Shown here piece by piece: positions 23,499 to 53,300 of a stretch of DNA of 64,000 bases. The stretch lies in contig DAOKYW010000016.1 in the NCBI GenBank assembly GCA_035325985.1, positions 4,126-68,125 of the forward strand, read 5' to 3'. Both the position numbers and the translations under genes were made by a program. The notes under the pieces were generated by a model. That model saw nothing but the letters and a program-made list of their open reading frames with translations, was not told where the DNA came from and made no database searches. How positions within the stretch are numbered: position 1 is the first letter of the stretch; each line of letters opens with the position of its first letter. Source of the DNA: Bacteroidales bacterium. Its GTDB lineage: Bacteria > Bacteroidota > Bacteroidia > Bacteroidales > F082.

Positions 23499-23507
23499 TT
23501 TCCTCGT

Positions 23508-24191
23508 CTAAAAATAAATTTCCGACATCATTTGTTCAATCGGCACCCCTTTACTTATGAGAATGTCGCGAACTTCTACCACCATTTCGGCACTGCCGCA
23601 TAAATAATAAAGGAGTGTCGGGTCGAAATGCGGCTGTTCCTTTAGCCATCTGGTGAGCCTGCCGGAATACAATCCCGGTCCGCTTTCCTGCGAACAACAG
23701 CGAACATAGCGCTCCCCAAAAGCGCTAAGCATCTCATGATCAAAATAAAATGAATCGGCTGTTCTGCCGCCATGAATAAGCATTTTGTTTTGACCCAGTC
23801 CGGCGCGCATCATAGCGCGATAAGGGGCTATGCCTGTGCCGGCTGCTATCCACCAGGCCGGCTTTTGATCGCCCAAAAAAGCACCAAAGGGCGCCGATAC
23901 ACTCAATGTATCACCGGGTTTAAGGTTTGCAAGTCTGGGCGTAAGCAAGCCATCCGGTTTAATGTTGAAGAGCAATTCAATGTAAGGATCATTAGGGCCG
24001 CTGGCAATGCTGTAGAGCCGGGGCGGCAATCCGTCGAGGCTCAGGCCTACCACCTGACCTGGCAGAAAGCTCTGCCGCCTGGCAAGGCGAATCACATAAA
24101 CGCCTCTGCCAAGTTCGCTTTTACCTTCAAGGGTAACCGTGTCCAATCGCAGATTCTTCAGAAAAGTTGTAAGTCCGTTGTCCATGAGCAT
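23508..24191 (-). CDS. ferredoxin-NADP+ reductase-like FAD/NAD(P)-binding oxidoreductase
   Basis: 227 aa. FAD motif RLYSIAS and NAD(P) motif AAGTGIAP. Ends 9 nt upstream of rlmN. Confidence 0.8.
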   Translation of the reverse strand: MLMDNGLTTFLKNLRLDTVTLEGKSELGRGVYVIRLARRQSFLPGQVVGLSLDGLPPRLYSIASGPNDPYIELLFNIKPDGLLTPRLANLKPGDTLSVSAPFGAFLGDQKPAWWIAAGTGIAPYRAMMRAGLGQNKMLIHGGRTADSFYFDHEMLSAFGERYVRCCSQESGPGLYSGRLTRWLKEQPHFDPTLLYYLCGSAEMVVEVRDILISKGVPIEQMMSEIYF

Positions 24192-24304
24192 GTTTGGTGT
24201 CGCAAAATTAATGTATTGATTGAGCGCCGCCCTTGCAAAAAACTTTGTCTTTTGACGTACAAGTCTTAAATGGTTTACTTTTGTTGTTAATAAATAAACA
24301 ACCG

Positions 24305-24964
24305 ATGGATCCGGTTATCAGGGTTACGGTGGTTGACGACCACGAGATCTTCCGCAGCGGACTTCGCATGGTGATCAACAAGATGGGTTACGCCAAAGTG
24401 GTGGCCGAAGCCGGCGACGGAGAAGAGTTTCTGAAGCTGCTTCCCGAACTTGAAACCGATATCGTGCTTATGGACATTGAGATGCCCGTGCTTAACGGCT
24501 ATGAAGCAACACGTAACGCACTGGAGATCAATCCTGATTTGAAGATTATCGCCCTCACCATGTTTAAAGACGATGCCTACATACAGAGCATGATCGAGGC
24601 CGGAGTCAAAGGTTTTCTTATAAAAAATATCAGGAAGGAAGTGCTCGAGCGCGCGCTTCAGGCCGTTTACAACGGCAAGACCTATTACAGTGAGGAGCTT
24701 TGGGACTACTTCACCCGCAGCATCGTAAAGGAAGAAAAAAAGGAAGAAAAGCCTTCGGCCGAAGGCATGGCTCTTACAAGGCGCGAACTGGATGTGCTGC
24801 AACTGTTGGCTGAGGGCCTGAACAACAAGGAAATAGCCGACCGCTTGTTTGTAAGCGAACGCACCGTAGTAGGACACAAGTCGAACCTGATGTCGAAAAC
24901 CAATACCAAAAACACCGTTGCCCTACTCGCCTACGCACTTCGTAATGGGCTGATTGACATCTGA
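24305..24964 (+). CDS. LuxR/FixJ/NarL-family response regulator
   Basis: REC domain (VTVVDDHEIF, VLMDIEMPVLNG, IIALTMF, GFLIKN) plus a LuxR HTH (LTRRELDVLQLLAEGLNNKEIADRLFVSERTV). Start trimmed from 24233 to ATG 24305. No kinase is directly adjacent. Confidence 0.9.
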   Translation: MDPVIRVTVVDDHEIFRSGLRMVINKMGYAKVVAEAGDGEEFLKLLPELETDIVLMDIEMPVLNGYEATRNALEINPDLKIIALTMFKDDAYIQSMIEAGVKGFLIKNIRKEVLERALQAVYNGKTYYSEELWDYFTRSIVKEEKKEEKPSAEGMALTRRELDVLQLLAEGLNNKEIADRLFVSERTVVGHKSNLMSKTNTKNTVALLAYALRNGLIDI

Positions 24965-24987
24965 TTATCATTTCTAATTACAGTTTA

Positions 24988-25024
24988 TTGCGTTTTTACG
25001 CAATTGCTTTGCGTAAAAACGCAA
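24988..25024 (+). promoter_or_regulatory. nested palindrome: two TTGCG-N6-CGCAA sites 21 bp apart that together form a 16-bp inverted repeat
   Basis: TTGCGTTTTTACGCAA (24988-25003), spacer TTGCT, then TTGCGTAAAAACGCAA (25009-25024). The two arms are exact reverse complements, and each arm is itself a 5+5 palindrome. The element starts 24 nt after the LuxR-RR stop and lies about 80-115 bp upstream of the -7 box at 25102. Confidence 0.5.
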
Positions 25025-25101
25025 TTCCTCTTTCGCCAGTCCGCAATATTTATATTGTGAAAACAGTAACAATGTACCTTTTCCATACCCAAAAGTGGGT
25101 A

Positions 25102-25109
25102 TATTTTTG
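25102..25109 (+). promoter_or_regulatory. candidate -7 box (TATTTTTG) for the hydrogenase operon
   Basis: TAnnTTTG, 48 nt upstream of the ATG at 25157. Confidence 0.4.
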
Positions 25110-25156
25110 TAACGCGATTGTTAGAAAATTCACATTAACACCAAAAAGATACAACA

Positions 25157-25675
25157 ATGAAAAAGGCAAAGATTCTCGTAGTTGACGACGACATGGATGT
25201 GATCAACGTCCTTGAGCCCATGCTCACCCACGAAGGTTATGAAGTGCTAACCGCCTACAACAAGCAGGAAGGCTTGGAAATCGCCCGCCGCGAACGGCCC
25301 GATCTGGCCATCCTCGACGTGATGATGACCACCCAGTACGAGGGTTTCGAGCTGGCAAAGGAATTTGTTGACGATCCTGAGCTAAGGGGCACTGCCACGC
25401 TGATGGAAACCTCCATCGAGGTGCTGATGACCACCAAGCCCAGCGTACAGGCTATGGCGCGCGAATTCCGCAACGACCCTAATTACAAGGAGCTGCAGGT
25501 GATCCTGATCCGCGATATCGTTACAGGAAATGCCGGAATTGACTACCGTGCCGAAGACGGCCGCTCGGTCTGGGTACCTGTTGACGGTTTTATCCGCAAG
25601 CCAGTTGACCGTTCGCGACTGCTCCCTGAAATCGAACGCATCCTGAACAAAAAGGCCGAAGCCGCCAATGCTTAA
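25157..25675 (+). CDS. single-domain response regulator receiver with a ~40-residue insertion
   Basis: 172 aa. Acidic pocket VVDDD, phospho-acceptor context AILDVMM (Asp54), and conserved Lys-Pro FIRKPV at residue 148. That is about 94 residues after the Asp, against about 50 in canonical REC domains. Confidence 0.75.
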   Translation: MKKAKILVVDDDMDVINVLEPMLTHEGYEVLTAYNKQEGLEIARRERPDLAILDVMMTTQYEGFELAKEFVDDPELRGTATLMETSIEVLMTTKPSVQAMAREFRNDPNYKELQVILIRDIVTGNAGIDYRAEDGRSVWVPVDGFIRKPVDRSRLLPEIERILNKKAEAANA

Positions 25676-25716
25676 CAAACGCATATACTATTTGCACATT
25701 CAATGCTAACCAAGCC

Positions 25717-26181
25717 ATGAGCGAAGCAGTTAAAGAAATTTTGAAACAATATCCCGGTGCCGGCCACGACAGCCTCATCCCCATACTCCAGCAGGTTCAG
25801 GACAAGATGGGCTATCTGTCGGAAGAATCGGTGATTGAAGTGGGCAAACACCTCAATATGCCGGCCAGCAAGATCTTTGGGGTAGCCACTTTTTACAACC
25901 AGTTCAGGTTTACCCAGCCCGGCAAATACCATATTCAAGTGTGCCGCGGCACAGCCTGCCACGTATTGGGTTCAGCCACGGTGCTCGACGAGCTCGAGAA
26001 GCTGCTGAAAATCAAATCTGGCCAGACTTCGCGCGATAAAATGTTCAGTTTGGAAGTAGTGGCCTGTATCGGCGCCTGTGGTCTGGCTCCCGTAATCAGT
26101 ATCAACGGCGAGTTTCATGCTAAGGTGACCTCAGAAACGCTGAAAAATATCATTGAAAACTACCGCAACAGGGAGGCATAA
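25717..26181 (+). CDS. hydC: NuoE-like [2Fe-2S] subunit of a NAD(P)H-linked [FeFe]-hydrogenase (HydC/HndA type)
   Basis: 154 aa. Cys motifs CRGTACHVLG and CIGACGLAP of the thioredoxin-like 2Fe-2S fold. Confidence 0.9.
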   Translation: MSEAVKEILKQYPGAGHDSLIPILQQVQDKMGYLSEESVIEVGKHLNMPASKIFGVATFYNQFRFTQPGKYHIQVCRGTACHVLGSATVLDELEKLLKIKSGQTSRDKMFSLEVVACIGACGLAPVISINGEFHAKVTSETLKNIIENYRNREA

Positions 26182-26183
26182 TT

Positions 26184-28124
26184 ATGACCACAGATAAAAG
26201 TTACCTTATTGAGAACGCCCTCAAGGTGAGTGAGCGTTCGAAACTGACTCCCGAAACCGAGCGCAAACTCCGGTATATCAGGCACGAAGAAAATACCAGT
26301 CCGGTAATCTTTGTCGGGGCAGGCACCTGCGGACTTGGCGCCGGAGCAGCCGAAACCATGGCCAAAACCAAAGAATGGCTCGAGGCGCGCAATATCGAGG
26401 CTCAAGTGGTACCCGTAGGCTGCATCGGCCTTTGCTCGAGCGAACCTTTACTGGATGTTAAACTCCCTGGAAAGAAGCGTATCTCGTTCGAAAAAGTAAC
26501 CGGCGACAAAGTTGAAGAGCTTTTAAACCTTGTTTTCGAAGGACAGCTGCCCGAAAATTCCATCCTGGGCCAGTTCTCGGCTCAGGAAAACCAGGAAGAC
26601 TGGAAAGGCATCAACGATATCAATTTGCACCCGTTTTTCAAACCTCAGGTGCGTATCGTACTCGAAAACTGCGGCATCATCGACCCTGTCAGCATCGAAG
26701 AATACATAGCCCGCGGCGGCTACAAAGCCTATCTCAATACCCTTAAGGTGTTCACGCGCAGCGAACTGTGCGACTATGTGGAAAAAAGCGGCTTACGCGG
26801 TCGCGGGGGCGGAGGATTTCCGACAGGCAAAAAATGGAAGTTTGCTTTGGGCACCGAAGCCGACCAGAAATACCTGATTTGCAATGCAGACGAAGGCGAC
26901 CCTGGTGCTTTTATGGATCGCGCCGTAATTGAAGGCGACCCTCACCGTCTGCTCGAGGGCATGATGATAGCGGCTTATGCCATTGGAGCAACCAAAGCCT
27001 ATATCTACATCAGGGCCGAATACCCGCTGGCTATTGAGCGCCTGGTCATTGCCATCGAAAAGGCTAAGGAATATGGCCTGCTGGGCAATGACATCTTCGG
27101 CACCGGAATAAAGCTGGATATTGTCATCAAGAAAGGAGCCGGGGCTTTTGTTTGCGGAGAAGAAACAGCGCTCATCCATAGCATCGAAGGCAAGCGGGGT
27201 ATGCCACGACCCAGGCCGCCATTCCCCGCTGTCAGCGGTTTGTTTGGCAAGCCCACCATCATCAACAACGTTGAAACCCTGGCCAACCTTCCCACCATCA
27301 TCAACAAAGGCGCCGACTGGTTTGCCGCAATGGGCACATCAACCAGCAAAGGCACAAAAGTGTTTGCCCTTTCGGGCAAAATTGCCACAACAGGACTGGT
27401 TGAAATTCCTATGGGCACTTCCATTCGCGATATCATTTATAAAATTGCCGGAGGCGTGGCTAACGGAAAACGCTTTAAGGCAGTGCAGATGGGTGGCCCG
27501 TCGGGTGGTTGCGTAACCGAAACTAACCTCGACATTCCCGTTGACTACGAAAGCCTTATCAATGTGGGCGCCATGATGGGATCCGGTGGCATGGTAATCA
27601 TGGACGAAGACACCTGCATGGTGGATGTAGCCAAGTTTTTCATGGACTTCATTCAGCGCGAGAGCTGCGGCAAGTGCATACCCTGCCGCGAAGGAACCCG
27701 TCGCATGCTCGAAATCATCGACAGCATCACCACCAAGCCCAAAAACCGTGAGATACATGAACCTTTAGCCCGATTCAAAGGTGTAATGCAGCTGGAACAA
27801 CTGGGCAGAGTTATTAAAGACACCTCGCTCTGCGGCTTAGGACAAACAGCACCCAATCCGGTGTTAAGCACATTGCAGTGGTTCCGCGAGGAATACGAAG
27901 AGCATGTATTCGACAAGAAATGCCGTGCCGGTGTATGTCAGAATCTTCGCGAATACAGCATCGATGTGGATAAATGCACCGGTTGCACTATTTGCGCCAA
28001 AAAGTGCCCGACCAATGCCATCATCGGAAGTCGTAAAAACCCTTACTACATCATCCCCGACAAATGCATCAGCTGTGGCGCCTGCATGGAAGCCTGCAAT
28101 TTCGATGCCGTGAGGGCCAGCTAA
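26184..28124 (+). CDS. hydB: NuoF-like flavoprotein subunit of a NAD(P)H-linked [FeFe]-hydrogenase (HydB/HndC type)
   Basis: 646 aa. N-terminal 2Fe-2S thioredoxin-like domain (GTCGLGAG...VGCIGLCSSEP), FMN/NADH site GRGGGGFPTGKKW, SCGKCIPCREG, and a C-terminal pair of CxxCxxCxxxCP motifs. Confidence 0.93.
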   Translation: MTTDKSYLIENALKVSERSKLTPETERKLRYIRHEENTSPVIFVGAGTCGLGAGAAETMAKTKEWLEARNIEAQVVPVGCIGLCSSEPLLDVKLPGKKRISFEKVTGDKVEELLNLVFEGQLPENSILGQFSAQENQEDWKGINDINLHPFFKPQVRIVLENCGIIDPVSIEEYIARGGYKAYLNTLKVFTRSELCDYVEKSGLRGRGGGGFPTGKKWKFALGTEADQKYLICNADEGDPGAFMDRAVIEGDPHRLLEGMMIAAYAIGATKAYIYIRAEYPLAIERLVIAIEKAKEYGLLGNDIFGTGIKLDIVIKKGAGAFVCGEETALIHSIEGKRGMPRPRPPFPAVSGLFGKPTIINNVETLANLPTIINKGADWFAAMGTSTSKGTKVFALSGKIATTGLVEIPMGTSIRDIIYKIAGGVANGKRFKAVQMGGPSGGCVTETNLDIPVDYESLINVGAMMGSGGMVIMDEDTCMVDVAKFFMDFIQRESCGKCIPCREGTRRMLEIIDSITTKPKNREIHEPLARFKGVMQLEQLGRVIKDTSLCGLGQTAPNPVLSTLQWFREEYEEHVFDKKCRAGVCQNLREYSIDVDKCTGCTICAKKCPTNAIIGSRKNPYYIIPDKCISCGACMEACNFDAVRAS

Positions 28125-28158
28125 TCAAGCCATCAATAACTACAAAAGCCAAGCAACG

Positions 28159-29880
28159 ATGAACCTCAGAATAGAAGTCAACAACAATGTGCTCGAAGCC
28201 CAGCAGGGCGATACCATCCTGGATGCCCTGAACCGGCACGGGATGAGCGTCCCGACACTTTGCCATATGAAAGGGCTTGTACCCACCGGTTCGTGCCGTA
28301 TGTGTGTGGTGGAGGTCGAAGGACGACGAAACCTTGTGCCGGCATGCTCCGAACCTATAACCGACGGTATGCGCATCAAAACACACTCCAACCGTGTGGT
28401 GGAATCGCGCAAAACGATCGTAGAGCTGCTGCTCTCGAACCACCCTGACGACTGCCTTTATTGCGAGCGCAATGGCAGCTGCGAACTTCAGAAGCTTTCG
28501 GAAGACCTCAACGTGCGCGAGCGTCGTATCAGCGGCAACAAAAACAATTACAAACTCGATGTTTCGAGCGCCAGCCTGGTGCGCGATCCCGCCAAGTGTA
28601 TCCTTTGCGGCCGCTGTGTGCGGGTGTGCGAAGAGATAGAAGGCGTTTCGGCCATCGATTTTGTGGGCCGTGGCAGCAAAACACTCATTAATACTTCGTT
28701 CAACCATGGCCTGAACCTGAGCACATGCGTCAACTGCGGACAGTGCATCATGGTATGCCCCACCGGAGCCCTGAAGGAAAAACCGCATATCACCGAAATA
28801 AAAGATAATCTGGGCAACCCCAATAAAACTGTTGTGGTGCAGTATGCACCCAGTATCACGGTTTCGTTTGCCGAAGAATTTGGCATGAAGCCCGGCCAGA
28901 ATGTGATCGGGCTGCTGAATGCCGCTCTCAGGCGTATCGGGTTCGACTATGTATTCGACACCTCCTTTTCGGCCGACCTCACCATTATGGAAGAAGCCTC
29001 CGAGCTCGTTCACCGCATCACCAATGGTGGCACCCTGCCAATGATAACCAGCTGTTGCCCGGGCTGGGTGAAATACGCCGAAGAGTTTGGGCACGACATC
29101 CTGCCTAACCTATCTTCCTGCAAATCACCACAGCAGATGATGGGTGCCATTATCAAAAGCTATTTTGCTCAAGTCGAAGGTTTGGCGCCCGAAAACATCT
29201 ATTCTGTATCCATCATGCCATGCACAGCCAAAAAGTTTGAGCAACAACGCGAAGAGATGACCCAAAATGGCATTTCGGATGTTGACGCGGTGCTCACCAC
29301 CCGCGAACTGGTGCGTTTGATACGCCTCTTCGGCATCGACATCAACAAACTCGAACCCGAAATTGCCGACTCGCCTCTGGGCACACGCTCATCGGCAGGA
29401 AAGATTTTCGGCGCATCGGGCGGTGTGATGGAAGCTGCAATCCGCACGGCACATTTCCTGATTACCGGAAAAGAAATGGTGAGGTTTCAGGTGAAAGCTG
29501 TGCGCGGCCTCAAAGGGCGCAAGGAAGCCACCGTCAAAGTGGGCGAGCTTGAAATAGGTGTAGCAGTTGTCAGCGGACTTAAAAATGCCTCTTTGCTTCT
29601 TGACGAAATACGCAACGGACGCTCCGACATTCATTTCATCGAAGTGATGGCCTGCCCGGGCGGATGTATCAATGGTGGCGGACAGCCTATCGGCACCGAT
29701 GAGGAAGCTGTGAAGGCACGCATGGCATCGCTCTACGATATCGACGAGAAGGATGCTATTAAAGTATCGCACAAGAATCCTTATATCGTTGAGCTGTACG
29801 AAAAGTTCCTGGGTAAGCCGCTGGGTCATAAGAGTCATCAGCTGCTCCACACCCATTATCAAAAGCGCGAAGTGAACTAA
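28159..29880 (+). CDS. hydA: [FeFe]-hydrogenase catalytic subunit (multimeric NuoEF-associated type, HydA/HndD)
   Basis: 573 aa. 2Fe-2S domain (CHMKGLVPTGSCRMCVVEV), HPDDCLYCERNGSC, and two ferredoxin-type 4Fe-4S motifs. All three H-cluster signatures are present: TSCCPGW, MPCTAKKFE and EVMACPGGCINGGGQP. Confidence 0.95.
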   Translation: MNLRIEVNNNVLEAQQGDTILDALNRHGMSVPTLCHMKGLVPTGSCRMCVVEVEGRRNLVPACSEPITDGMRIKTHSNRVVESRKTIVELLLSNHPDDCLYCERNGSCELQKLSEDLNVRERRISGNKNNYKLDVSSASLVRDPAKCILCGRCVRVCEEIEGVSAIDFVGRGSKTLINTSFNHGLNLSTCVNCGQCIMVCPTGALKEKPHITEIKDNLGNPNKTVVVQYAPSITVSFAEEFGMKPGQNVIGLLNAALRRIGFDYVFDTSFSADLTIMEEASELVHRITNGGTLPMITSCCPGWVKYAEEFGHDILPNLSSCKSPQQMMGAIIKSYFAQVEGLAPENIYSVSIMPCTAKKFEQQREEMTQNGISDVDAVLTTRELVRLIRLFGIDINKLEPEIADSPLGTRSSAGKIFGASGGVMEAAIRTAHFLITGKEMVRFQVKAVRGLKGRKEATVKVGELEIGVAVVSGLKNASLLLDEIRNGRSDIHFIEVMACPGGCINGGGQPIGTDEEAVKARMASLYDIDEKDAIKVSHKNPYIVELYEKFLGKPLGHKSHQLLHTHYQKREVN

Positions 29881-29907
29881 TTATACCGAGCCTTAAAACG
29901 GACACTC

Positions 29908-31893
29908 ATGCCACACAACAGCGAGATCAGGCAGCTTGTATTCACGGTGAAAGACCTGTGCAGGATGTGCTTTACCTGTGTGCGGGAGTGTCCGGTGAAG
30001 GCCATACGGATAGCCAACGGTCAGGCCGAAGTAATCAGTGAACGCTGCATAGGTTGTGGCAATTGCGTGAGGGTGTGCCGGCAGGGAGCCAAGAACTTTG
30101 TGCGCCATACCCATCAGGTGCTCGATATGCTGGACAGCGGAAAACGATTGGTAGCCATGGTAGCACCCAGCTTTCCGGCCGAATTTACCGAGCTTGACCA
30201 TCCAGGGCGTTTAGTTGGGATGCTCCGTGCCCTTGGCTTCGAAAAGGTAACCGAAGTGGCCTTCGGCGCCGACCTTGTAGCCCGCAGCTATCGCTCCCTG
30301 TTTCTTGACAACAACCACGGTGCAGTAATTTCATCCGATTGTCCTGCCATTGTCTATTACGTCGAGCACTATCATCCTGAGCTCACGCCGCATCTGGCTC
30401 CGGTCGTTTCGCCCATGGTGGCTGCTGCCCGCAACCTGCTGCGTAAATATGGCGATGATATTACCGTTGTTTTCTTTGGCCCTTGCATCGCCAAGAAAGC
30501 CGAATCGGACGAGGTGCGCTATGCGTTGACTTTTACTGAGTTGCGCGAAATGCTGGCCATCAAGGGTATCGGATACGAAGATTGCGAAATCGCCGGTTTC
30601 GACCCGCCTTTGGCAGGAAAAGGTTCGGTATTTCCCATTAGCCACGGTCTGTTGCAAAACATGGACGTTGCTGCCGACCTCACCCGGGGCGATGTCGTGG
30701 TGGCCGAAGGCAGGGTGAACATCAAAGATGCTATCAACGAATTTGCCCACGGCGTGCTGAACGCCCGGCACCTCGAACTGCTGTGCTGCGAAGGCTGCAT
30801 TATGGGACCCGGCATGAGCCCAAAAGGCAATAAATACGAGCGGCGAAGTCAGGTTTCGGCCTATGTGTCCGCAAAACTCGAAAATTTCGACCGGCAGGCC
30901 TGGGAAGCCGAGTTGGAAGAAGCCAAAAGCCTTGATCTCAGCACCAGTTTCGAAGCCCGCGATCGTAGGTTGCAACGGCCCGACAATGAAGCCATAAACG
31001 CTGTGCTGCAAAAATTCGGCAAGACAAAGCCATCCGATTTGCTCGATTGCGGAGCATGCGGCTACGACAGCTGTATCGAACATGCGGTTGCCGTACTTCA
31101 GGGCCTTGCCGAAGACGAAATGTGCCTGCCTTATACCATCGAAAAGCTACACCAAAGCATAGAGCACCTCAACCTTTCGAACGCCGAACTGGCCAGTGCA
31201 CGCGAAGCCCTCAGGCAATCCGAAAAACTGGCACATATGGGCCAGCTTTCGGCAGGCATTGCCCATGAACTGAATAATCCTCTTGGCGTGATCACGATGT
31301 ACAGCAACCTGCTGCTCGACGATGCCCCTGATGATCAGATGCGTAACGATCTGCAGCTCATTGTGGAACAAGCCGAAAGATGCCGTAAAATTGTGGGCGG
31401 ACTGCTCAATTTCGCACGCAAAAACCAGCTCAGGCTCGTGGAAACCAACGTTGAGTCGCTGGTAAACCGAAGCCTGCAATCGGTAGTGATTCCGCCTGCT
31501 GTTGCAGTGGAAGTGGAAGTCGATCTGACCGACCCCTTTGCATTTATTGATGCCGATCAGATGATGCAGGTACTCACCAATCTGGAAAAGAATGCTGTGG
31601 AAGCCATGCCCGAAGGCGGAATACTGCGAGTCAGGATAGGCGAAAAAAACGAAGAAATAACCATTAGTATTGCTGATACGGGCACCGGTATTTCGCCCGA
31701 AAATATGGATCGGATATTTACTCCTTTCTTTACCACCAAGGAGGTGGGCAAAGGCACCGGGCTTGGGTTGCCGTTGTGCTATGGCATTGTGAAGATGCAC
31801 AAAGGTCAGATCAATGTAACCTCTAACGACCAGCCCGAAAAAGGCCCGACCGGAACAACATTCACTATTGTTTTACCCAGAAAACCCATTTAG
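29908..31893 (+). CDS. [FeFe]-hydrogenase-like (putative sensory) protein fused to a histidine kinase
   Basis: 661 aa. Domain order: 2x CxxCxxCxxxCP ferredoxin domain; H-domain with variant signatures SSDCPAI, GPCIAKKAE and LLCCEGCIMGPG; four-Cys module CGACGYDSC...C; coiled coil; H-box GIAHELNNPLG; N box NLEKNAVEAM; G boxes DTGTGI and GKGTGLGLP. Confidence 0.85.
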   Translation: MPHNSEIRQLVFTVKDLCRMCFTCVRECPVKAIRIANGQAEVISERCIGCGNCVRVCRQGAKNFVRHTHQVLDMLDSGKRLVAMVAPSFPAEFTELDHPGRLVGMLRALGFEKVTEVAFGADLVARSYRSLFLDNNHGAVISSDCPAIVYYVEHYHPELTPHLAPVVSPMVAAARNLLRKYGDDITVVFFGPCIAKKAESDEVRYALTFTELREMLAIKGIGYEDCEIAGFDPPLAGKGSVFPISHGLLQNMDVAADLTRGDVVVAEGRVNIKDAINEFAHGVLNARHLELLCCEGCIMGPGMSPKGNKYERRSQVSAYVSAKLENFDRQAWEAELEEAKSLDLSTSFEARDRRLQRPDNEAINAVLQKFGKTKPSDLLDCGACGYDSCIEHAVAVLQGLAEDEMCLPYTIEKLHQSIEHLNLSNAELASAREALRQSEKLAHMGQLSAGIAHELNNPLGVITMYSNLLLDDAPDDQMRNDLQLIVEQAERCRKIVGGLLNFARKNQLRLVETNVESLVNRSLQSVVIPPAVAVEVEVDLTDPFAFIDADQMMQVLTNLEKNAVEAMPEGGILRVRIGEKNEEITISIADTGTGISPENMDRIFTPFFTTKEVGKGTGLGLPLCYGIVKMHKGQINVTSNDQPEKGPTGTTFTIVLPRKPI

Positions 31894-31920
31894 TAACAAG
31901 GATTCAATACATACAAGATT

Positions 31921-32316
31921 ATGAGCAACGAAAACAAACTGATTCTGATTGCCGACGATGATGCCGACTACCTTTATCAAATGGAAATGATGGTGCGCAG
32001 CTTTGGTTTCAGGGTAAAGACCGCTGAAGGACAGGCAGAAGCAGAAAAAATACTGGAATCCACGAAGCCTGATCTTGCCATTTTCGACCTGATGATGGAA
32101 CAGGAGGACAGCGGATTCATCCTCGCTTACAAAGCACGGCGCAAATACCCCGAAATGCCCATCATTATTGCATCGGCAGCAACCGCCGAAACAGGCTTCA
32201 ATTTTGACCTTTACGACGAGGGCAATAAAAACTGGATCAAGGCCGACCTTTATCTTGAAAAAGGCATACGTCCCGACCAGCTGCACCGCGAAATCAATAA
32301 GCTGCTAAAACTCTGA
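31921..32316 (+). CDS. single-domain (CheY-like) response regulator
   Basis: 131 aa. LIADDDAD and AIFDLMME phospho-acceptor context. No output domain. Confidence 0.88.
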   Translation: MSNENKLILIADDDADYLYQMEMMVRSFGFRVKTAEGQAEAEKILESTKPDLAIFDLMMEQEDSGFILAYKARRKYPEMPIIIASAATAETGFNFDLYDEGNKNWIKADLYLEKGIRPDQLHREINKLLKL

Positions 32317-32385
32317 GTTCATTTTATGCGGATAGTGCATTGACTTAACTTTGCCCCGCCAACCGAAAAGAAATAACCGACGAAT

Positions 32386-33507
32386 ATGGCAACGCTACAA
32401 GTGATGGTGGTTGACGATGAACCGGGAATCCGCTCGGGTGTGGTCCGCATTTTGCAGAACTTCACCGTGGGTTATCCATTCATGGATGAGGACTTCGACT
32501 TTGAGGTGATTGAAGCCGGCACGGGCGAGGAAGCCATTGAATTGCTTAATTCCAGAAAAGTGGATGTAGTGCTGCTCGACAATAAGCTACCGGGCATGGA
32601 TGGCATTGAGGTGCTCGAATACATCAACAAACAGCAGTTCGACCTGGCGGTGATGATGATTACTTCCTACGCCTCGCTCGACCTGGCCATAAGAGCCACC
32701 AAGAGCGGCGCGTATAATTTTATGCCCAAGCCTTTTACTCCGCAGGAACTCAGGGCTACTATAGAAAACGTGGCCAAGCACCTTTTCCTGAAACGCATGA
32801 CCCGCAAAATGCAGATTGAGGGCAAGCAAGTCAGGTTTCAGTTCCTGTCGGTGCTGTCGCACGAGCTCAAATCGCCGCTCAATGCTGTGGAAGGCTACCT
32901 CAAAATGATGCAGGAAAAACAACTGGGCGAAAATATCGACAGCTATGCCACTATGATTGACCGTTCGCTGGCCCGCCTGAAGGGCATGCGCAACCTCATC
33001 ATGGACCTGCTCGACCTTACGCGCATCGAATCGGGAAAGAAGGAGCGCCGTTTGCGCGAAACCGATCTGCCCGCAATTGCCCGGCAGGCCATGGATACCA
33101 TGGAGCCCTATGCCATTCAGAAAAACGTGAAAATGACCTTGTCCAGCAAAGGCAATACAACCCTGCTCGCCGATGCCGATGAAATGGAAATCATTTTCAA
33201 TAACCTGGTTTCCAATGCCGTAAAATACAATAAGGATAACGGCAAAGTGAGCGTACTCATCGAAGAAGCAGGAAAAGAAATTGTTATCCGGGTAAGCGAC
33301 ACAGGCATTGGCATGAGCAAGGAAGATATTGAAAAAATCTTCGAAGACTTTGTGCGGATTAAAAACCAGAAAACCAAAGAGATAACCGGAAGCGGACTGG
33401 GTCTTTCCATCCTTAAGCGTATGGTGGAACTCTATAATGGCACCGTGTCCGTGGAAAGTGTTCCCGACGTAGGCACCACCTTTACAGTAACCATTCCAAA
33501 GCAGTAA
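32386..33507 (+). CDS. receiver-fused histidine kinase (N-terminal REC, then HisKA and HATPase_c)
   Basis: 373 aa. REC (VMVVDDEPG, VLLDNKLPGMDG, PKPF), then H-box LSHELKSPLN and G boxes DTGIGM and GSGLGLS. No TM or other sensor domain. Confidence 0.9.
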   Translation: MATLQVMVVDDEPGIRSGVVRILQNFTVGYPFMDEDFDFEVIEAGTGEEAIELLNSRKVDVVLLDNKLPGMDGIEVLEYINKQQFDLAVMMITSYASLDLAIRATKSGAYNFMPKPFTPQELRATIENVAKHLFLKRMTRKMQIEGKQVRFQFLSVLSHELKSPLNAVEGYLKMMQEKQLGENIDSYATMIDRSLARLKGMRNLIMDLLDLTRIESGKKERRLRETDLPAIARQAMDTMEPYAIQKNVKMTLSSKGNTTLLADADEMEIIFNNLVSNAVKYNKDNGKVSVLIEEAGKEIVIRVSDTGIGMSKEDIEKIFEDFVRIKNQKTKEITGSGLGLSILKRMVELYNGTVSVESVPDVGTTFTVTIPKQ

Positions 33508-33606
33508 ACCGCAAGCATGCAATGACGGAACTTTGACCGCGTTATTAAAATTAAAGAGAAAATATTTAAGTATTAAAGAACCTGATTCCATTATAGAAGC
33601 GCCCAC

Positions 33607-35034
33607 ATGAAATTTTATCCCGAGACATACCGCATTCCCGACGAATCGATGAAGCCCTTTATTGATGATGGAGAGATATGGGATTACCTGAATCAGGCCG
33701 AGGCTACGCCCGAAAACGTCAGGCAAGTTATTGAGAAATCATTTTCGAAGCAGCGCCTTAGCCTGATGGACACTGCCATTTTGCTTCGTGCCGATGATCC
33801 TGACATGATCGAGCAAATCAAGCAGGGCGCCCGCAGTCTGAAAGAGAAGGTATATGGCAAGCGCATTGTGCTTTTTGCACCGCTTTACGTGGGCAACTAC
33901 TGCTCCAACAACTGCCGTTATTGTGGCTTCAAGGCATCAAACAAGGATGCCGTTCGCAAAACACTTACCCGTGAGGAGCTTATCGAAAATGTAAAAGCCC
34001 TGGAAGAACACGGGCAAAAAAGGCTCATTCTTGTTTTTGGCGAACACCGCACCTATTCGCCCGAATTTATTGCCGAAACCGTTCGGGAGGTGTACAAAGT
34101 AAAAAAAGACCATGGCGAAATCAGAAGGGTCAACATCAATGCTGCTCCTTTTGACGTGGAGGGTTTCAGAACAATAGGCCAGTCAGGCATCGGCACCTAT
34201 CAGATTTTTCAGGAAACATATCACCACGAAACCTACGCCAATTGCCATACCTCGGGCAAAAAGTCAGATTACGACTGGCGCCTCACTGCCCTCGACAGAG
34301 CCATGGAAGCCGGCATTGACGATGTAGGCATAGGCGCCCTTTTCGGGTTGTACGACTGGCGGTTCGAGGTGATGGCCCTGGTCCGGCACGTGAATCACCT
34401 CGAAGCATGCTATAATGTTGGCCCGCACACCATCTCATTTCCGCGTATTCAGGACGCACTCGAATACGACCTTGACGATCGCTTTACCGTTTCGGACGAA
34501 GATTTTACGCGCCTTGTGGCCATACTGCGGCTGGCCGTGCCTTATACAGGACTCATTCTTACCGCACGTGAACCCGAGCATATAAGGCGCGAAGTACTGG
34601 CTTTCGGTTGCTCGCAAATTGACGCAGGCACCAAGCTGGAGATAGGCGCTTATGCCGAAAACCCCTCGGTAGATCAAAACCTCACAAAAGAGCAGTTTAA
34701 AATCAATGACGACCGCAGCCTGAACGAAGTCATCGACGAGCTGCTCGAAGCCGATTACATCCCCTCATTCTGTACAGCGTGCTATCGCAAGGGCCGCACA
34801 GGCCAACACTTCATGGAATTCAGCGTTCCGGGATTTATCAAGCACTTCTGCACCCCAAATGCCCTGCTTACACTGGCAGAATATATCGAGGACTATGCCA
34901 CTGATGCTACTGCCGAAAAGGGCTGGCGTGTCATTGAGCGCAGCATTGCCGCGCTGGACGACCCTCGCTACGAAGCACAGGTGCGCGAACGTATCGGACG
35001 CATCCGGCAGGGCGAACGCGACCTTTACTTCTGA
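33607..35034 (+). CDS. hydG: [FeFe]-hydrogenase H-cluster radical SAM maturase HydG
   Basis: 475 aa. Radical SAM CSNNCRYC plus a C-terminal CTAC-X22-C auxiliary cluster motif. Confidence 0.93.
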   Translation: MKFYPETYRIPDESMKPFIDDGEIWDYLNQAEATPENVRQVIEKSFSKQRLSLMDTAILLRADDPDMIEQIKQGARSLKEKVYGKRIVLFAPLYVGNYCSNNCRYCGFKASNKDAVRKTLTREELIENVKALEEHGQKRLILVFGEHRTYSPEFIAETVREVYKVKKDHGEIRRVNINAAPFDVEGFRTIGQSGIGTYQIFQETYHHETYANCHTSGKKSDYDWRLTALDRAMEAGIDDVGIGALFGLYDWRFEVMALVRHVNHLEACYNVGPHTISFPRIQDALEYDLDDRFTVSDEDFTRLVAILRLAVPYTGLILTAREPEHIRREVLAFGCSQIDAGTKLEIGAYAENPSVDQNLTKEQFKINDDRSLNEVIDELLEADYIPSFCTACYRKGRTGQHFMEFSVPGFIKHFCTPNALLTLAEYIEDYATDATAEKGWRVIERSIAALDDPRYEAQVRERIGRIRQGERDLYF

Positions 35035-35073
35035 TTTCTTACTCACGCGAAAAGACTCATTGCACTTCAAGCC

Positions 35074-36282
35074 ATGGTAAAAGGAAAAGACCTCAAACCT
35101 CATATCGGGATATTCGGACGACGCAACAACGGCAAGAGTTCCATTATCAATCTGATGGTCAATCAGGAAGTAGCCATTGTATCGCCCGAACCGGGAACAA
35201 CCACCGACCCGGTGAAGAAATCGATCGAAATTTTCGGCATCGGACCGGCCATCATCATCGATACCGCAGGCATTGATGATACCGGCGAACTGGGTGAAAA
35301 GCGTGTGCAAAAAAGCCTTCAGGCCATAAAAACCATCGACTGCGCCATACTTGTCATCACCGAAAACCAGTTCGGGTTTTACGAAAAAGAGCTCATCAAA
35401 CAGTTCCGTGAACATCAGGTGCCCTATCTAATCCTGCACAACAAATCCGACCTGCAGCCTCTGGAAGAAATTACCCGCGAAAAAATCCGTGAGTTTAGCA
35501 AGGCTGAGGTAATTGACTTTACCACCACTAACCAACTCGGACTGGAAGCATTCATAACCGCATTGAAAAAAACTATTCCGGAAACAGTTTATCAGAAACC
35601 GTCTTTATTGGGTGGGTTGGTAGAGCCCGGCGGTGTTGTGGTGCTGGTTACGCCCATCGATTCCGAAGCCCCCGACGGACGCATGATATTGCCGCAGGTG
35701 ATGGCCATACGCGATGTGCTGGATAACGACTGTATTTGCGTAGTGCTCAAGGAAACGCAGCTTGAACAGTATTTCCGCGAGGGAATGCCCGGGCCTCAGC
35801 TGGTTGTTACCGATAGTCAGGCCTTTGGTTTTGTAAGCAAGGTGGTTCCTGCCGAAATACCGCTAACCAGTTTCAGCATCGTTTTTGCCCGGCTGCGGGG
35901 CGATTTTGAGCACTACCTGAAGGGAACAGCCATGCTATCAGCGCTTGACGACGAAGACAAAGTGCTCATCCTCGAATCGTGCACCCATCAGGTGAGTTGC
36001 GAAGACATCGGCCGGCACAAGTTGCCCCGCTGGATTAAAGAGTTTACCGGAAAGAATGTGCATTGCGATATTGTTGCAGGCCTGGCTCAGGTAGCTGATG
36101 TGCACCAATACAAGCTCGTGATACAGTGCGGAGGTTGTGTTGTTACCCGCAAACAGCTCATCAACCGGCTACGACCTGCCGTGAATGCCGGCGTAGCCGT
36201 GAGCAATTATGGCATGGCCATTGCATGGATGAACGGCATTTTCGGCAGGGTGACACAACCCTTTCACAAACTCTATTCATAA
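35074..36282 (+). CDS. hydF: [FeFe]-hydrogenase H-cluster maturation GTPase HydF
   Basis: 402 aa. P-loop GRRNNGKSS, DTAG, and NKSD. The C-terminal cluster motif is CTH-X45-QCGGC, with Gln where many HydF proteins have His. Confidence 0.92.
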   Translation: MVKGKDLKPHIGIFGRRNNGKSSIINLMVNQEVAIVSPEPGTTTDPVKKSIEIFGIGPAIIIDTAGIDDTGELGEKRVQKSLQAIKTIDCAILVITENQFGFYEKELIKQFREHQVPYLILHNKSDLQPLEEITREKIREFSKAEVIDFTTTNQLGLEAFITALKKTIPETVYQKPSLLGGLVEPGGVVVLVTPIDSEAPDGRMILPQVMAIRDVLDNDCICVVLKETQLEQYFREGMPGPQLVVTDSQAFGFVSKVVPAEIPLTSFSIVFARLRGDFEHYLKGTAMLSALDDEDKVLILESCTHQVSCEDIGRHKLPRWIKEFTGKNVHCDIVAGLAQVADVHQYKLVIQCGGCVVTRKQLINRLRPAVNAGVAVSNYGMAIAWMNGIFGRVTQPFHKLYS

Positions 36283-36509
36283 AATATTCCTTTGAGCCGG
36301 GCAACACGCAAAGCCTCAGTGCCGGAAAACAAGAAGTGCCTGCAAATAAAAAGCCTGATCTTATTATAGATGCGTGGCTCAGTGCAAAAGCCTGACCAAT
36401 ATTAGTGTTTCCATGGGCGGGGAAATCTATTCTCCTCATGCCGGAAACACTATGCACCTTGTGCACAGGAAAAATCCATAAACAACAAAACAGGGAATTA
36501 AACAATAAA

Positions 36510-36527
36510 CCCCGCCAAAAGGCGGGG
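36510..36527. terminator. GC-rich hairpin between the convergent hydF and carboxyltransferase genes
   Basis: CCCCGCC-AAAA-GGCGGGG. On the minus strand it is followed by TTTATTGTTT, and on the plus strand by CTTTCTCC. Confidence 0.65.
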
Positions 36528-36563
36528 CTTTCTCCATTGGGTATATTGAATATTGGTTAGGAT

Positions 36564-38102
36564 TTAAAGAGGGATATTGCCGTGTTTCTTCGAAGGGTTG
36601 TTCTTCACCTTATTTTGCGTCATCTCCAGCGCTTCGATGAGCTTGCGTCGGGTTTGTCGAGGATAGATAATCTCGTCGATATAGCCCAAAGCTGCGGCCT
36701 TGTATGGGCTGGCAAAACGCCGGCGGTAATCTTCGATGGCTGCCTTACGCTCTTCCTCCGAGTTCAGCTTGTTCTTGTAGATGATATTGACAGCCCCTTC
36801 AGGTCCCATAACGGCAATCTCGGCAGTGGGATAAGCCAGATTGACATCGGCCCCGATATGCTTGCTCGACATTACATCATAGGCACCACCATAGGCTTTG
36901 CGGGTAATCACCGTGATTTTGGGCACAGTAGCTTCAGCAAAGGCATAGAGTAGCTTGGCGCCATGCTTAATGATACCACCAAATTCCTGAACTGTTCCGG
37001 GAAGGAAACCGGGCACATCTTCAAAAGTAATCAGCGGGATATTGAAGGCATCGCAAAAGCGCACAAAACGGGCAGCCTTGACTGAGCTGTCGATATCCAG
37101 CACTCCAGCAAGCACCGAAGGCTGATTGGCTACAACACCTACAGACCGGCCACCCAGTCGGGCAAATCCGACGATGATGTTTTTGGCATAGTAGGGTTGA
37201 ATCTCGAAGAAATTGTTGTCGTCCACCACCCTGCCTATGATTTCGTGCATATCGTAAGGCTTATTGGGATCGTCGGGTACAATATTGTCGAGGCTTTCGT
37301 CTTCGCGCAGGGGATTGTCGGTACAGGCTTTCACCGGCGGGTCCTCCATATTGTTGGAGGGCAGATAGCTCAGCAGCTCGCGCAACATCATCATAGCCTG
37401 GGTATCATCGTCAGCCATCAGGTGAGCTACACCACTCTTGCTGTTGTGGGTCATGGCGCCCCCCAGTTCTTCCTTGGTAACCTCCTCGTGGGTCACCGCC
37501 TTAATCACATCAGGGCCGGTAACGAACATATAAGAGGTTTCTTTGACCATCATGATAAAGTCGGTGATGGCCGGGGAATAAACCGCTCCGCCTGCACACG
37601 GACCAAGGATGGCACTTATTTGAGGAATCACACCCGACGACATTACATTGCGGTAAAAAATGTCGGCATAGCCGGCCAGACTTTCCACGCCTTCCTGTAT
37701 GCGGGCACCACCGCTATCGTTGAGGCCTATGACCGGCGCCCCCATCTTCATGGCAAGGTCCATTATCTTCACAATCTTATCGGCATTGGCCCGGCTGAGC
37801 GAGCCTCCAAACACCGTAAAGTCCTGAGCGAACACATAGACCAGCCTGCCGTCGATCTTTCCGTAACCGGTTACAACGCCATCGCCCAGAAACTTTTGTT
37901 TGTCCATTTCGAAATCGGTGGCGCGGTGGGTCATAAACTTATCCACTTCCACAAAAGTGTTGGGGTCGAGCAGGTCGAGCAAACGTTCGCGGGCTGTCTT
38001 ACGCCCTGCTTCGTGCTGCTTCCTGATGCGGTCTTCGCCCCCGCCCAGCTCGGCAAGGCGGTTGTATTCCTCAAGTTGTCTGATTTTTTCTTCCTGTGCC
38101 AT
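36564..38102 (-). CDS. acyl-CoA carboxylase carboxyltransferase (beta) subunit, propionyl-CoA/methylmalonyl-CoA type
   Basis: 512 aa, carboxyl_trans family throughout ([17 protein letters not shown]). Confidence 0.92.
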
Positions 38103-38117
38103 ATTGTTGTTTATTAT

Positions 38118-38624
38118 TTATTCCAGTATAACCATGGGCTGATCACCGCTCACCGTATCGCCCTCTTTGACCAGAATACGTTTGATGACGCGATCCTGTT
38201 TCACTTTATATTCGCTATCCATCTTCATGGCCGAAACCACTACTACTGTCTGACCGGCCGACACCGCATCGCCTTCCTTGAAAAGCACTTTTACCACTTT
38301 TCCGGGCATGGGCGAAACAATGACACTTCCGTCGTCGGCATCATCGCGACGTCGGTTGAGCTTATATTTGGTCTCAGCATCAATGATATCGACCTCGAAG
38401 GACGAAAAGAAGGTATTCACGATGTACGACTTGCTTCCGCGGTTTTCGACAAGCTCAACATTGAATGAGCTGTTTTCGTGCAGCACGCTGTACACGCCTT
38501 GCTCCACCTCAATAATGTCAAGCTCGTAAATCTTGTTGTCGATGGCTATCTGATAGTAATTGCCATCGCGGCTCAGGACTTCGATGTTCCTGACTTTATC
38601 CTCAATTTTAATCTCGTATGCCAT
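38118..38624 (-). CDS. biotin carboxyl carrier protein (biotin/lipoyl attachment domain)
   Basis: C-terminal biotinyl domain with SAMKMD. Start trimmed from 38825 to ATG 38624 (MAYEIKIED), 13 nt after the upstream stop. Confidence 0.85.
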   Translation of the reverse strand: MAYEIKIEDKVRNIEVLSRDGNYYQIAIDNKIYELDIIEVEQGVYSVLHENSSFNVELVENRGSKSYIVNTFFSSFEVDIIDAETKYKLNRRRDDADDGSVIVSPMPGKVVKVLFKEGDAVSAGQTVVVVSAMKMDSEYKVKQDRVIKRILVKEGDTVSGDQPMVILE

Positions 38625-38637
38625 ATTTCGATAGTTA

Positions 38638-40146: not shown

Positions 40147-40339
40147 ATGTGTTGGTTTTGAGGCTTTTATAAGCAAAGGAACGCATTAAAAAGCCGGTAA
40201 ATATATGCAAAAACTTAGATGTACTTATTCAGACTAAATTAACTGAAGCCATTGCAGCCATGTTTTCTGATGCAGAGCAGCCAAAGGCCTGGTGCAAATT
40301 GTCCCGGCAAATACCCCAAAAGTACCTTACATTTGTTTG

Positions 40340-53136: not shown

Positions 53137-53292
53137 CCGTTTTAGCTTACTACCCTGCTTTCGGGCTGGGCAAAAATACGAAAATCAGCACTCAGGAAAG
53201 CAGACAACACACTATAGGATTTTAAGCAAGCAGCCAACAGGCAGATGGCGTGCAAAATGTTTGCCCTATGTAGAAATTGTGCGGTTTTGGAC

Positions 53293-53300
53293 TAACTTTG
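53293..53300 (+). promoter_or_regulatory. candidate -7 box (TAACTTTG) for maeB
   Basis: TAnnTTTG, 22 nt upstream of ATG 53322. Confidence 0.45.

Follow-up and report, generated by a model that had tools for sequence, protein, structure and literature searches.

Among described [FeFe]-hydrogenases, those closest to the gene treated here are the sensory enzymes of Thermotoga maritima (TmHydS; group C, subclass M2f) and Thermoanaerobacter mathranii (TamHydS; group D, subclass M2e), together with group C proteins fused to a histidine kinase, which are known from genome annotation alone. Our subject, hydS-HK, encodes such a fusion and lies in a 64,000-nucleotide stretch of a Bacteroidales genome (assembly GCA_035325985.1, contig DAOKYW010000016.1, positions 4,126 to 68,125 of the forward strand), which we call the window and in which all coordinates of its genes are counted. 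Subclasses M2e and M2f are defined by two N-terminal clusters and a Cx2Cx4Cx16C motif (PMC8163306), and TmHydS and TamHydS, which carry this module, can be loaded with the [2Fe] cofactor, are slow in H2 turnover, and stabilize reduced states (PMC8163306, PMC10055695). hydS-HK shares with TmHydS the two N-terminal [4Fe-4S] clusters, the H-domain, and the Cx2Cx4Cx16C cluster, as well as a Gly at the position of Met353 (CpI numbering) and the loss of Cys299 and of the canonical proton pathway (PMC8163306, PMC10055695). However, TmHydS terminates in a PAS domain where hydS-HK, which lacks PAS, carries its kinase, and the two proteins differ at the relay position (Ala in TmHydS, Asp in hydS-HK) and at the Met497 position (Ser versus Leu). 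With TamHydS, hydS-HK has in common the cluster complement, a Leu at the Met497 position, a gene location beside a bifurcating hydrogenase, and a helix after the last cluster; in TamHydS this helix forms the C-terminus, and the two protomers of a homodimer predicted by AlphaFold2 line up along it (PMC13104023). In contrast to hydS-HK with its kinase, TamHydS has no output domain.

A similar logic is known from the regulatory [NiFe]-hydrogenase HoxBC and its kinase HoxJ (HydDB group 2b), where a slow hydrogenase serves as the H2 sensor that drives two-component control of hydrogenase genes (PMC5037454, PMC8163306), although active site and fold are unrelated and sensor and kinase are separate, joined via a PAS-like region of HoxJ. 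The kinase-fused [FeFe] proteins, in turn, have been recorded as the HydDB entry "[FeFe] group C1, histidine kinase-linked (putative)" (PMC5037454), as ING2E5A_0849 of Petrimonas mucosa, a HydDB group C1 gene beside hnd genes (PMC7768429), and in 2020 as a kinase-fused group C protein next to a trimeric hydrogenase, of an Elusimicrobia/Ignavibacterium/Caldithrix type (bioRxiv 10.1101/765248). A 2024 survey named "bfuT" a group C3 hydrogenase with a histidine-kinase domain that follows bfuA in sub-type V clusters of Hydrogenedentota and Caldithrix abyssi, and also recorded Bacteroidota with two bfuT genes (PMC11406978). Published relatives are thus typed either C1 (Petrimonas, PMC7768429) or C3 (the kinase-bearing BfuT, PMC11406978), and the BfuT, Elusimicrobia-type, and Petrimonas proteins share with hydS-HK the domain architecture, the place after hydA, and the downstream receiver (REC) and REC-kinase genes. 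Fusion and synteny are therefore already published, as annotation. An earlier interpretation of the window made from its letters alone (the sequence-only reading) had implied that the PAS-less fusion is new, which does not hold, since it is the commonest kinase-linked form.

On the evidence set out below, we assign a probability of roughly 0.6 to the following reading: hydS-HK is a cytoplasmic H2 sensor of the sensory branch (HydDB group C) that carries its histidine-kinase output in the same polypeptide and controls hydrogenase genes.

Domain order of hydS-HK

The hydrogenase-kinase architecture of hydS-HK is confirmed. The reading frame opens with an ATG 27 nt past the hydA stop codon, and another 27 nt separate its end from a REC gene; a protein of identical sequence is on public record from a Bacteroidales metagenome-assembled genome. 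Its features are as follows:

29908-31893 (+): hydS-HK, a 661-residue sensory-type [FeFe]-hydrogenase joined to a class I histidine kinase (open reading frame, Pfam)
29947-30090 (+): N-terminal ferredoxin-like domain with two CxxCxxCxxxC [4Fe-4S] motifs, C18-C28 and C47-C57 (Pfam, motif positions)
30142-30810 (+): H-domain in a short sensory-type version, residues 79-301 (PF02906 Fe_hyd_lg_C, Foldseek)
31042-31131 (+): C-terminal accessory cluster domain, C381-x2-C384-x4-C389-x16-C406 (PF04060)
31237-31425 (+): HisKA/DHp domain with the H-box AHELNNP (Pfam)
31549-31884 (+): HATPase_c catalytic domain with N, G1 (DTGTG), F (FTPFF), and G2 (GTGLGL) boxes

In Pfam, the Fer4-type dicluster covers residues 14-61, Fe_hyd_lg_C matches over its whole profile (positions 1-245 of 245, E = 8e-44), and PF04060 ("FeS", a putative Fe-S cluster) matches residues 379-408 (E = 8.5e-7), followed by HisKA at residues 444-506 (E = 9e-15) and HATPase_c at residues 548-659 (E = 1.4e-25). 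The protein has cysteines at positions 18, 21, 24, 28, 47, 50, 53, 57, 145, 193, 226, 293, 294, 297, 381, 384, 389, 406, 492, and 624, and those of the ferredoxin motifs are invariant or nearly so among relatives. No dedicated NCBIfam model for a hydrogenase-kinase fusion reaches its own cut-off on hydS-HK. An AlphaFold2 monomer model (input alignment of 81 sequences) had a mean predicted local distance difference test score (pLDDT) of 88.9 and a predicted TM-score of 0.68.

The sequence-only reading had located the two ferredoxin-type motifs and the C381-C406 module by hand, and all lie exactly where it placed them, as does the H-box His453, which together with a complete ATPase domain is borne out by the HisKA and HATPase_c matches and their conserved boxes. 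It had also held that no PAS, GAF, or transmembrane segment precedes the kinase. Pfam finds no PAS or GAF in hydS-HK at E ≤ 0.01, no transmembrane segment is apparent (the top 19-residue Kyte-Doolittle mean is 1.17), and the model places a single helix, residues 407-471, before the kinase; neither Pfam nor hydropathy nor the model reveals a hidden domain of these kinds between H-domain and kinase.

The probable H-cluster site

To compare the active-site motifs, we aligned hydS-HK and the HydA of the window with 150 representatives of 50%-identity clusters, found by searching with only the hydrogenase part. By coincidence, the residue numbers of the adjacent HydA agree with those of CpI (TSC299C300P, M353PC355, and M497AC499PGGC503), so residues are given below by their CpI equivalents. 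The three motifs of hydS-HK are the following:

30331-30345 (+): L1 motif SSDCP (residues 142-146); D144 at the CpI Cys299 proton-relay position, C145 equivalent to the ligand Cys300
30478-30495 (+): L2 motif GPCIAK (GPC at residues 191-193); G191 at the Met353 position, C193 equivalent to Cys355, K196 to Lys358
30775-30798 (+): L3 motif ELLCCEGC (residues 290-297); E290 equivalent to Glu495, L292 at the Met497 position, C293 at the Ala498 position

All motif pairings that the sequence-only reading drew with the adjacent HydA (SSDCP/TSCCP, GPC/MPC, and ELLCC/EVMAC) were found, and its claim that the four cluster-ligating cysteines are kept stood for the number of ligands and for C145, C193, and C297, while its third ligand, C293, had to be exchanged for C294. 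In the family alignment, the C294 column is Cys in 148 of the 150 representatives, whereas the C293 column varies (F/A/Y/C/M/S), and the kinase-fused branch shows Cx2C against the Cx3C of HydA, a one-residue deletion, with C294 and C297 aligning to Cys499 and Cys503. We therefore dropped C293 and take C145, C193, C294, and C297 as the ligand set, which corresponds to Cys300, Cys355, Cys499, and Cys503, the four H-cluster cysteines of sensory group C.

Residues that contact the diiron site in CpI are likewise kept, namely A230/P231/S232 (as A86/P87/S88), P324 (P169), K358 (K196), E361 (E199), F417 (F242), and E495 (E290). Altered are the positions that tune catalysis, with Cys299 replaced by D144, Met353 by G191, Met497 by L292, and Gln325 by M170, and the canonical proton pathway is gone (E279 to Y128, E282 to S130, R286 to a gap, S319 to A164). 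This combination, in which neither Cys299 nor the canonical pathway is conserved and the Met353 position holds Gly, is the published signature of the putative sensory enzymes; in the sensory set of HydDB, 43% of the sequences have Ala at the Cys299 position, 17% have Cys, and 10% each have Pro and Ser, while 51% have Gly at the Met353 position (PMC10055695). Membership in the prototypical group A is ruled out by motifs that depart from the prototypical TSCCP, MPCxxK, and ExMxCxxGC, by the lack of an Fe_hyd_SSU match, and by a TIGR02512 score of 95 against a cut-off of 406. Group D (M2e) is ruled out as well: the Met353 position is Ser or Thr in that group (PMC10407848, PMC8163306) and Gly in hydS-HK, and the proton route E252-E289-S249-D265 of TamHydS (PMC10407848) is absent, with only E290 (the equivalent of E289, or Glu495) kept and with L248 as the presumed counterpart of E252, judging by a comparison of the motifs SGGEAF and SHGLLQ based on the primer sequences in PMC10407848. 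The Cx2Cx4Cx16C module of hydS-HK matches the motif published for M2e/M2f sensory hydrogenases (PMC8163306). Strict M2f membership, which entails a PAS domain after the C-terminal cluster, does not apply either, as the helix leads straight into the DHp domain. By its alignment, then, hydS-HK belongs to the group C module family, outside the PAS-bearing M2f subclass, and it likely has a genuine sensory H-cluster site, as the sequence-only reading had proposed.

Nar1/CIAO3-like proteins have an H-domain-like fold without the residues that bind the diiron subsite. If hydS-HK were a scaffold of this type, it would hold [4Fe-4S] clusters only and would act as a generic Fe-S, oxygen, or redox sensor kinase, and some features could be read in this way: the H-domain is short (223 residues matched in Pfam versus 285 in HydA), none of the motifs L1, L2, and L3 has its canonical form, and one survey did not find the P1-P3 motifs in some group C1 sequences (PMC11406978). 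However, besides the four ligand cysteines, hydS-HK retains K196, E199, P87, S88, and P169 (Lys358, Glu361, Pro231, Ser232, and Pro324 in CpI), the maturase genes hydG and hydF belong to the same cassette, and TmHydS and TamHydS, whose motifs show the same alterations, both bind [2Fe] and are capable of H2 turnover (PMC8163306, PMC10055695). The fold also points to true [FeFe]-hydrogenases, as Foldseek matched the first ~420 residues of the model to CbA5H, HydA of HydABC complexes, DdH, and CpI at E values of about 1e-20; no sensory hydrogenase is among the 50 best PDB matches listed. Since the [2Fe]-contact residues are kept, relatives bind the cofactor, and hydG and hydF are adjacent, we rejected a diiron-free scaffold, which appears very improbable.

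An invariant aspartate at the relay position in Bacteroidota

The codon of D144 (GAT, 30337-30339) specifies a residue that is Asp in 132 of 132 close relatives and in all Bacteroidota loci that were retrieved. Of the 150 diverse representatives, by contrast, a single one has Asp in this column, a 283-residue fragment of the same clade. None of the other 149 has Asp; most often they carry Ala (51 sequences), Pro (25), Ser (22), Thr (20), Cys (13), or Asn (7). Thr is the residue seen in Calditrichota and Victivallales, Asn that in Hydrogenedentota, and Ignavibacteriota show Ala, Pro, or Ser; within kinase-fused group C, Asp at the Cys299 position is confined to the Bacteroidota clade (the Calditrichota and Hydrogenedentota loci are 44-51% identical to hydS-HK over the hydrogenase part). 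Asp at this position, invariant within the clade, seems to have gone undescribed so far. Several residues that are rare outside the Bacteroidota clade co-occur with it, namely C293 next to the cubane ligand (30784-30786), H392 in the cluster domain (31081-31083), H415 in the connector helix (31150-31152), K323, and R353.

The sequence-only reading held that Asp is the one replacement that preserved proton transfer in mutagenesis of clostridial enzymes, and the literature agrees: in CaI, CpII, and CrHydA1, exchange of this Cys for Asp left the cofactor in place, retained 10-58% of H2 evolution, and moved the bias towards H2 evolution, and CaI with this exchange stays in Hox when conditions are reducing (PMC9563086). 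The C299D variant of CpI is represented by crystal structures (6glz and 8pvm, from the Foldseek search), and the natural, invariant Asp offers a ready counterpart of the much-studied C299D/C169D laboratory variants. A role of Asp144 in feeding the canonical proton pathway is ruled out by the absence of the pathway residues. Because the pathway behind position 299 is missing, Asp144 might instead act as a terminal proton acceptor or as the start of an unknown route. One could go further and speculate that the Bacteroidota clade reinvented the first proton step of the H-cluster for sensing, with Asp144, paired with Cys293, in place of the relay Cys and no exit pathway behind it. One H2 would then be split stoichiometrically, its proton would be trapped on Asp144, and the change in protonation or charge, rather than Fe-S redox chemistry, would move the helix between C406 and His453 and set kinase activity. 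We hold this to be unlikely; if true, hydS-HK would be the first natural [FeFe]-hydrogenase shown to use Asp at the relay position, and for no other [FeFe] H2 sensor would a signal path have been defined before.

The C-terminal cluster and the connector helix

The cysteines of the C-terminal cluster (C381, C384, C389, and C406) are invariant in 131 relatives, and the model connects the last of them to the kinase by one element:

31126-31320 (+): single predicted helix, residues 407-471 (AlphaFold2, DSSP)

This helix starts right after the last cluster ligand, C406, and runs unbroken into DHp helix 1, which bears His453 (codon at 31264-31266). Its pLDDT ranges from 61 to 86 and drops to 61-74 halfway along, as one would expect when a coiled coil is predicted from a single chain. 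Because the helix is continuous, what the sequence-only reading had described as a short coiled coil may be a rigid connector from cluster ligand to phospho-acceptor.

The same reading had further proposed that the redox state passes through the extra Fe-S module to the kinase. This part of its interpretation is contradicted by data on TamHydS, whose C-terminal cluster stayed oxidized under 1 atm H2 and could be removed with barely any effect on catalysis (PMC13104023). The authors of that study concluded that cluster reduction as the central signalling step appears refuted and suggested a structural signalling role instead, and they observed that the secondary structure of TamHydS changes upon H2 (PMC13104023). 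In hydS-HK, a structural route through the C-terminal cluster module is supported by the model, since C406 caps the His453 helix. Taken together, the TamHydS cluster data and the helix from C406 to His453 lead us to favor a mechanical relay.

A rival reading starts from the N-terminal part of the protein. The conserved dicluster domain there is of the surface type, and TamHydS conducts electrons mainly through its N-terminal clusters, which H2 reduces (PMC13104023). On this basis hydS-HK might be a sensor of the cellular redox pool, in which the N-terminal [4Fe-4S] clusters exchange electrons with ferredoxin or HydABC, the kinase reads their reduction state, and the H-cluster mainly equilibrates with H2/H+, so that the signal is the ferredoxin/NADH redox poise. 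The position of the gene inside the operon of a ferredoxin/NADH-linked hydrogenase would fit, as would the leaning of Asp variants of catalytic enzymes towards H2 evolution (PMC9563086). However, conservation within the module is strongest in the H-cluster pocket, which a plain ferredoxin sensor would not need, and this explanation overlaps with H2 sensing, given that H2 and redox poise are thermodynamically coupled. We consider a redox-pool sensor improbable and retain H2 as the more likely signal of hydS-HK.

The kinase core and the hydrogenase cassette

The kinase part of hydS-HK has the conserved residues H453, N558/N562, D590/G592/G594, F604/F607, and G616/G618/G620. H453 is nearly invariant in kinase-type relatives, and the four boxes N, G1, F, and G2 show little or no variation. 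With its H-box His and all four boxes, the core is, as judged by its motifs, that of a class I (HisKA) kinase. The AtoS and ZraS models of NCBIfam match residues 429-660, a match to KinB is also seen, and the closest solved match of the core is ZraS (2e-36); in Foldseek, the last ~235 residues match the ZraS cytoplasmic domain with a TM-score of 0.78 on the target. ZraS, AtoS, and NtrB-like kinases thus share the DHp and CA core and the HE(L/I)NNP H-box with hydS-HK, but their inputs are membrane, periplasmic, or PAS modules, whereas the input of hydS-HK is a hydrogenase module on a single helix.

The gene is embedded in a run of hydrogenase and two-component genes:

25717-26181 (+): hydC (Pfam)
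26184-28124 (+): hydB (Pfam)
28159-29880 (+): hydA (Pfam; passes the cut-off of NCBIfam NF040763, NADH-dependent group A6)
31921-32316 (+): stand-alone receiver (REC) protein, likely the first phospho-acceptor (Pfam)
32386-33507 (+): REC-HisKA-HATPase hybrid kinase, likely the second relay tier (Pfam)
33607-35034 (+): hydG, H-cluster maturase (Pfam)
35074-36282 (+): hydF, H-cluster maturase (Pfam)
24233-24964 (+): LuxR/NarL-type response regulator upstream of hydC, candidate output regulator
25157-25675 (+): 172-residue REC protein upstream of hydC, candidate output regulator

By its family matches, hydCBA, directly upstream of hydS-HK, is a trimeric NADH-linked/bifurcating-type group A [FeFe]-hydrogenase, and hydG and hydF start 1.7 kb downstream of hydS-HK in the same direction. 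The order hydC-hydB-hydA-[sensor-kinase]-REC-[REC-kinase]-hydG-hydF is a conserved cassette that is seen again in Bacteroidota, Ignavibacteriota, Calditrichota, and no fewer than ten further groups. Across 66 fused loci, 45 of the 54 that could be assessed have hydA directly before the fused sensor; a REC gene follows directly in 55 of 65 loci, a REC-HisKA-HATPase hybrid lies within 2.5 kb downstream in 49 related loci, and hydG and hydF often come next after the hybrid kinase. The adjoining conserved REC gene suggests itself as the cognate receiver of hydS-HK. No hydE was found within the 64-kb window; in the closest relative (locus L002), the gene next to hydF on its downstream side is a hydE-like radical SAM gene. 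Between hydA and hydS-HK, where the gap is only 27 nt, there is no terminator-like site on the plus strand.

That the gene almost always stands right after hydA, in one transcription unit, is equally what one would expect of a regulatory subunit of HydABC, and the name "T subunit" was indeed given to BfuT (PMC11406978). Such a subunit would dock on the enzyme and exert post-translational control of activity or assembly, with kinase and receivers forming a local, non-transcriptional circuit, and the cassette has no universally conserved DNA-binding regulator. This proposal has to reckon with a complete class I kinase with conserved REC partners and with the LuxR-type regulator directly upstream in the window and its closest relatives. 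We regard it as quite improbable and continue to prefer a sensor kinase with a probably transcriptional output.

Several further observations concern the control regions of this cassette. A scan of 23400-36700 for promoters and terminators performed no better than on shuffled sequence; a strong terminator-like hairpin lies on the minus strand at 36530-36507. The 192-bp gap between the LuxR-type regulator and the REC/hydCBA genes holds two exact copies of the 16-bp palindrome TTGCGTAAAAACGCAA (24988-25003 and 25009-25024), 5 bp apart, and a TAnnTTTG-like element lies near 25103-25110. The double palindrome could serve as an operator or form a terminator hairpin; its occurrence in the window does not clearly exceed chance. 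Its candidacy as a conserved operator was rejected, with no exact TTGCGTN4ACGCAA in 80 related loci.

Distribution of the fusion and of its input module

More than 120 clusters contain proteins of the same length and Pfam architecture as hydS-HK at 58-88% identity. The hydrogenase part alone retrieves 963 cluster representatives at E ≤ 1e-30, and 44 of the best 150 of these have a kinase like that of hydS-HK. Among 42 kinase-type proteins scanned with Pfam, HisKA was found in 40 and HATPase_c in 41, next to 4 PAS, 1 GAF, and 2 receiver domains; with PAS in only 4 of 42, the PAS-less junction is the rule for kinase-linked forms. The 77 kinase-less relatives scanned include about 26 with PAS domains, 14 sigma-54 activators, and 4 diguanylate cyclases (GGDEF), and the unit of two clusters, H-domain, and Cx2Cx4Cx16C motif appears from these combinations to behave as a portable input module.

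In a distribution scan for the full-length fusion, with one genome per species, we found it in Bacteroidota (Lentimicrobiaceae, Rikenellaceae, Porphyromonadaceae, and others), in Ignavibacteriota including Melioribacter roseus, and in Calditrichota, Victivallales, Myxococcota, Smithellaceae, Planctomycetota, Hydrogenedentota, Anaerolineae, Clostridia, Dehalococcoidales, Neomarinimicrobiota, Elusimicrobia, and Spirochaetales. The synteny of the 66 fused loci spans more than 10 phyla.

Two variations of the locus were observed along the way. Many Bacteroidales relatives have a second sensory-type hydrogenase gene (36-39% identical), divergently oriented, upstream of hydC (loci L007, L008, L011-L013, L015, L017, L019, L022, L024, L063, and L066). 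In L007 it encodes a kinase-less protein of 630 residues (3600-5492, minus strand) and is followed by a SpoIIE/PP2C phosphatase (2409-3593, minus strand), that is, a phosphatase-linked type; unlike these loci, the window lacks such a gene and has the LuxR-type regulator and the REC protein in its place. In Ignavibacteriota, the sensor-kinase, a REC, and a REC-PAS-kinase stand between two different HydABC-type operons (L039, 9989-19432, and likewise L035, L037, L044, L045, L051, L052, L054, L057, L064, and L072), an arrangement that suggests a switch between two hydrogenases.

A proposed model for H2-dependent signalling

How might hydS-HK work as an H2 sensor? In the sequence of events that we propose, the HydG/F(/E) machinery would load the [2Fe] subsite, and the H-cluster would split H2 slowly, in a pocket whose alterations (Gly for Met353, Leu for Met497, no canonical pathway) may stabilize the reduced state over turnover. 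Asp144, next to the ligand Cys145, would accept the proton from the bridgehead amine. A change of the H-domain upon H2 binding, reduction, or protonation would then move the C-terminal cluster domain, which would act as a rigid hinge and not as a redox relay, and C406 would pass the movement on to the helix that it caps, about 65 residues long and continuing as DHp helix 1 with His453. Paired in the dimer, the helices would shift the register of coiled coil and DHp and thereby turn autophosphorylation on or off. From there the phosphoryl group would travel to the adjacent single-domain REC and the REC-kinase hybrid, and the relay could end in this genome at a DNA-binding regulator, probably the upstream LuxR-type one, which would set transcription of the bifurcating hydrogenase and its maturases by the H2 level.

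Several points weigh against this reading. The idea of a hinge is transferred by analogy from a group D enzyme that has no output domain, and the model of the connector helix is that of a monomer. The canonical proton pathway behind Asp144 is absent. As to the output, the LuxR-type regulator and the 172-residue REC protein are conserved only in the closest loci (L002-L004, L018, and L060); with a DNA-binding regulator kept only there, transcriptional output is a presumption. Finally, our literature search found no biochemical work on any kinase-fused member.

Other genes of the window

Outside the cassette, the window encodes a HisKA-HATPase-REC hybrid kinase of 642 residues (40292-42220, plus strand), the first ~260 residues of which have no Pfam match, and a 2443-residue open reading frame (45169-52500, minus strand) that matches SprA, the type IX secretion translocon (E = 2e-197). 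Together with other genes, SprA confirms that the window stems from Bacteroidota. An NAD-binding oxidoreductase (23508-24191, minus strand) lies just upstream of the hydrogenase region, and further upstream is a cytochrome/quinol oxidase subunit I-like protein of the COX1 family (20473-21828, minus strand, E = 1e-59); an oxidase-type gene so near to an oxygen-sensitive hydrogenase operon was unexpected. Adjoining the cassette are a carboxyltransferase and a biotin carboxylase of the propionyl/methylmalonyl-CoA type (36564-40176, minus strand), and a fused malic enzyme-phosphotransacetylase is found at 53277-55613. The carboxylase genes and the malic enzyme-phosphotransacetylase are consistent with a fermentative, propionate-forming metabolism.

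Implications

Whether [FeFe]-hydrogenases of groups C and D sense H2, and how the signal is passed on, is a still-open question in the field, and the TamHydS study called it critical to find the interaction partner (PMC13104023). The kinase-fused members carry this partner in the same chain, so that H2-dependent autophosphorylation should be directly measurable, and their conserved REC and REC-kinase neighbors supply the next steps of the pathway. Signalling by [FeFe] sensory hydrogenases could thus be assayed more directly in this family than in any system so far. This value lies in the family, which is already in databases and literature, with nothing specific to the window, and the fusion as such will not surprise a specialist. 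The family sits in the bifurcating-hydrogenase operon of numerous anaerobic fermenters, Bacteroidales from digesters and sediments among them, and probably sets the response of these organisms to the build-up of H2.

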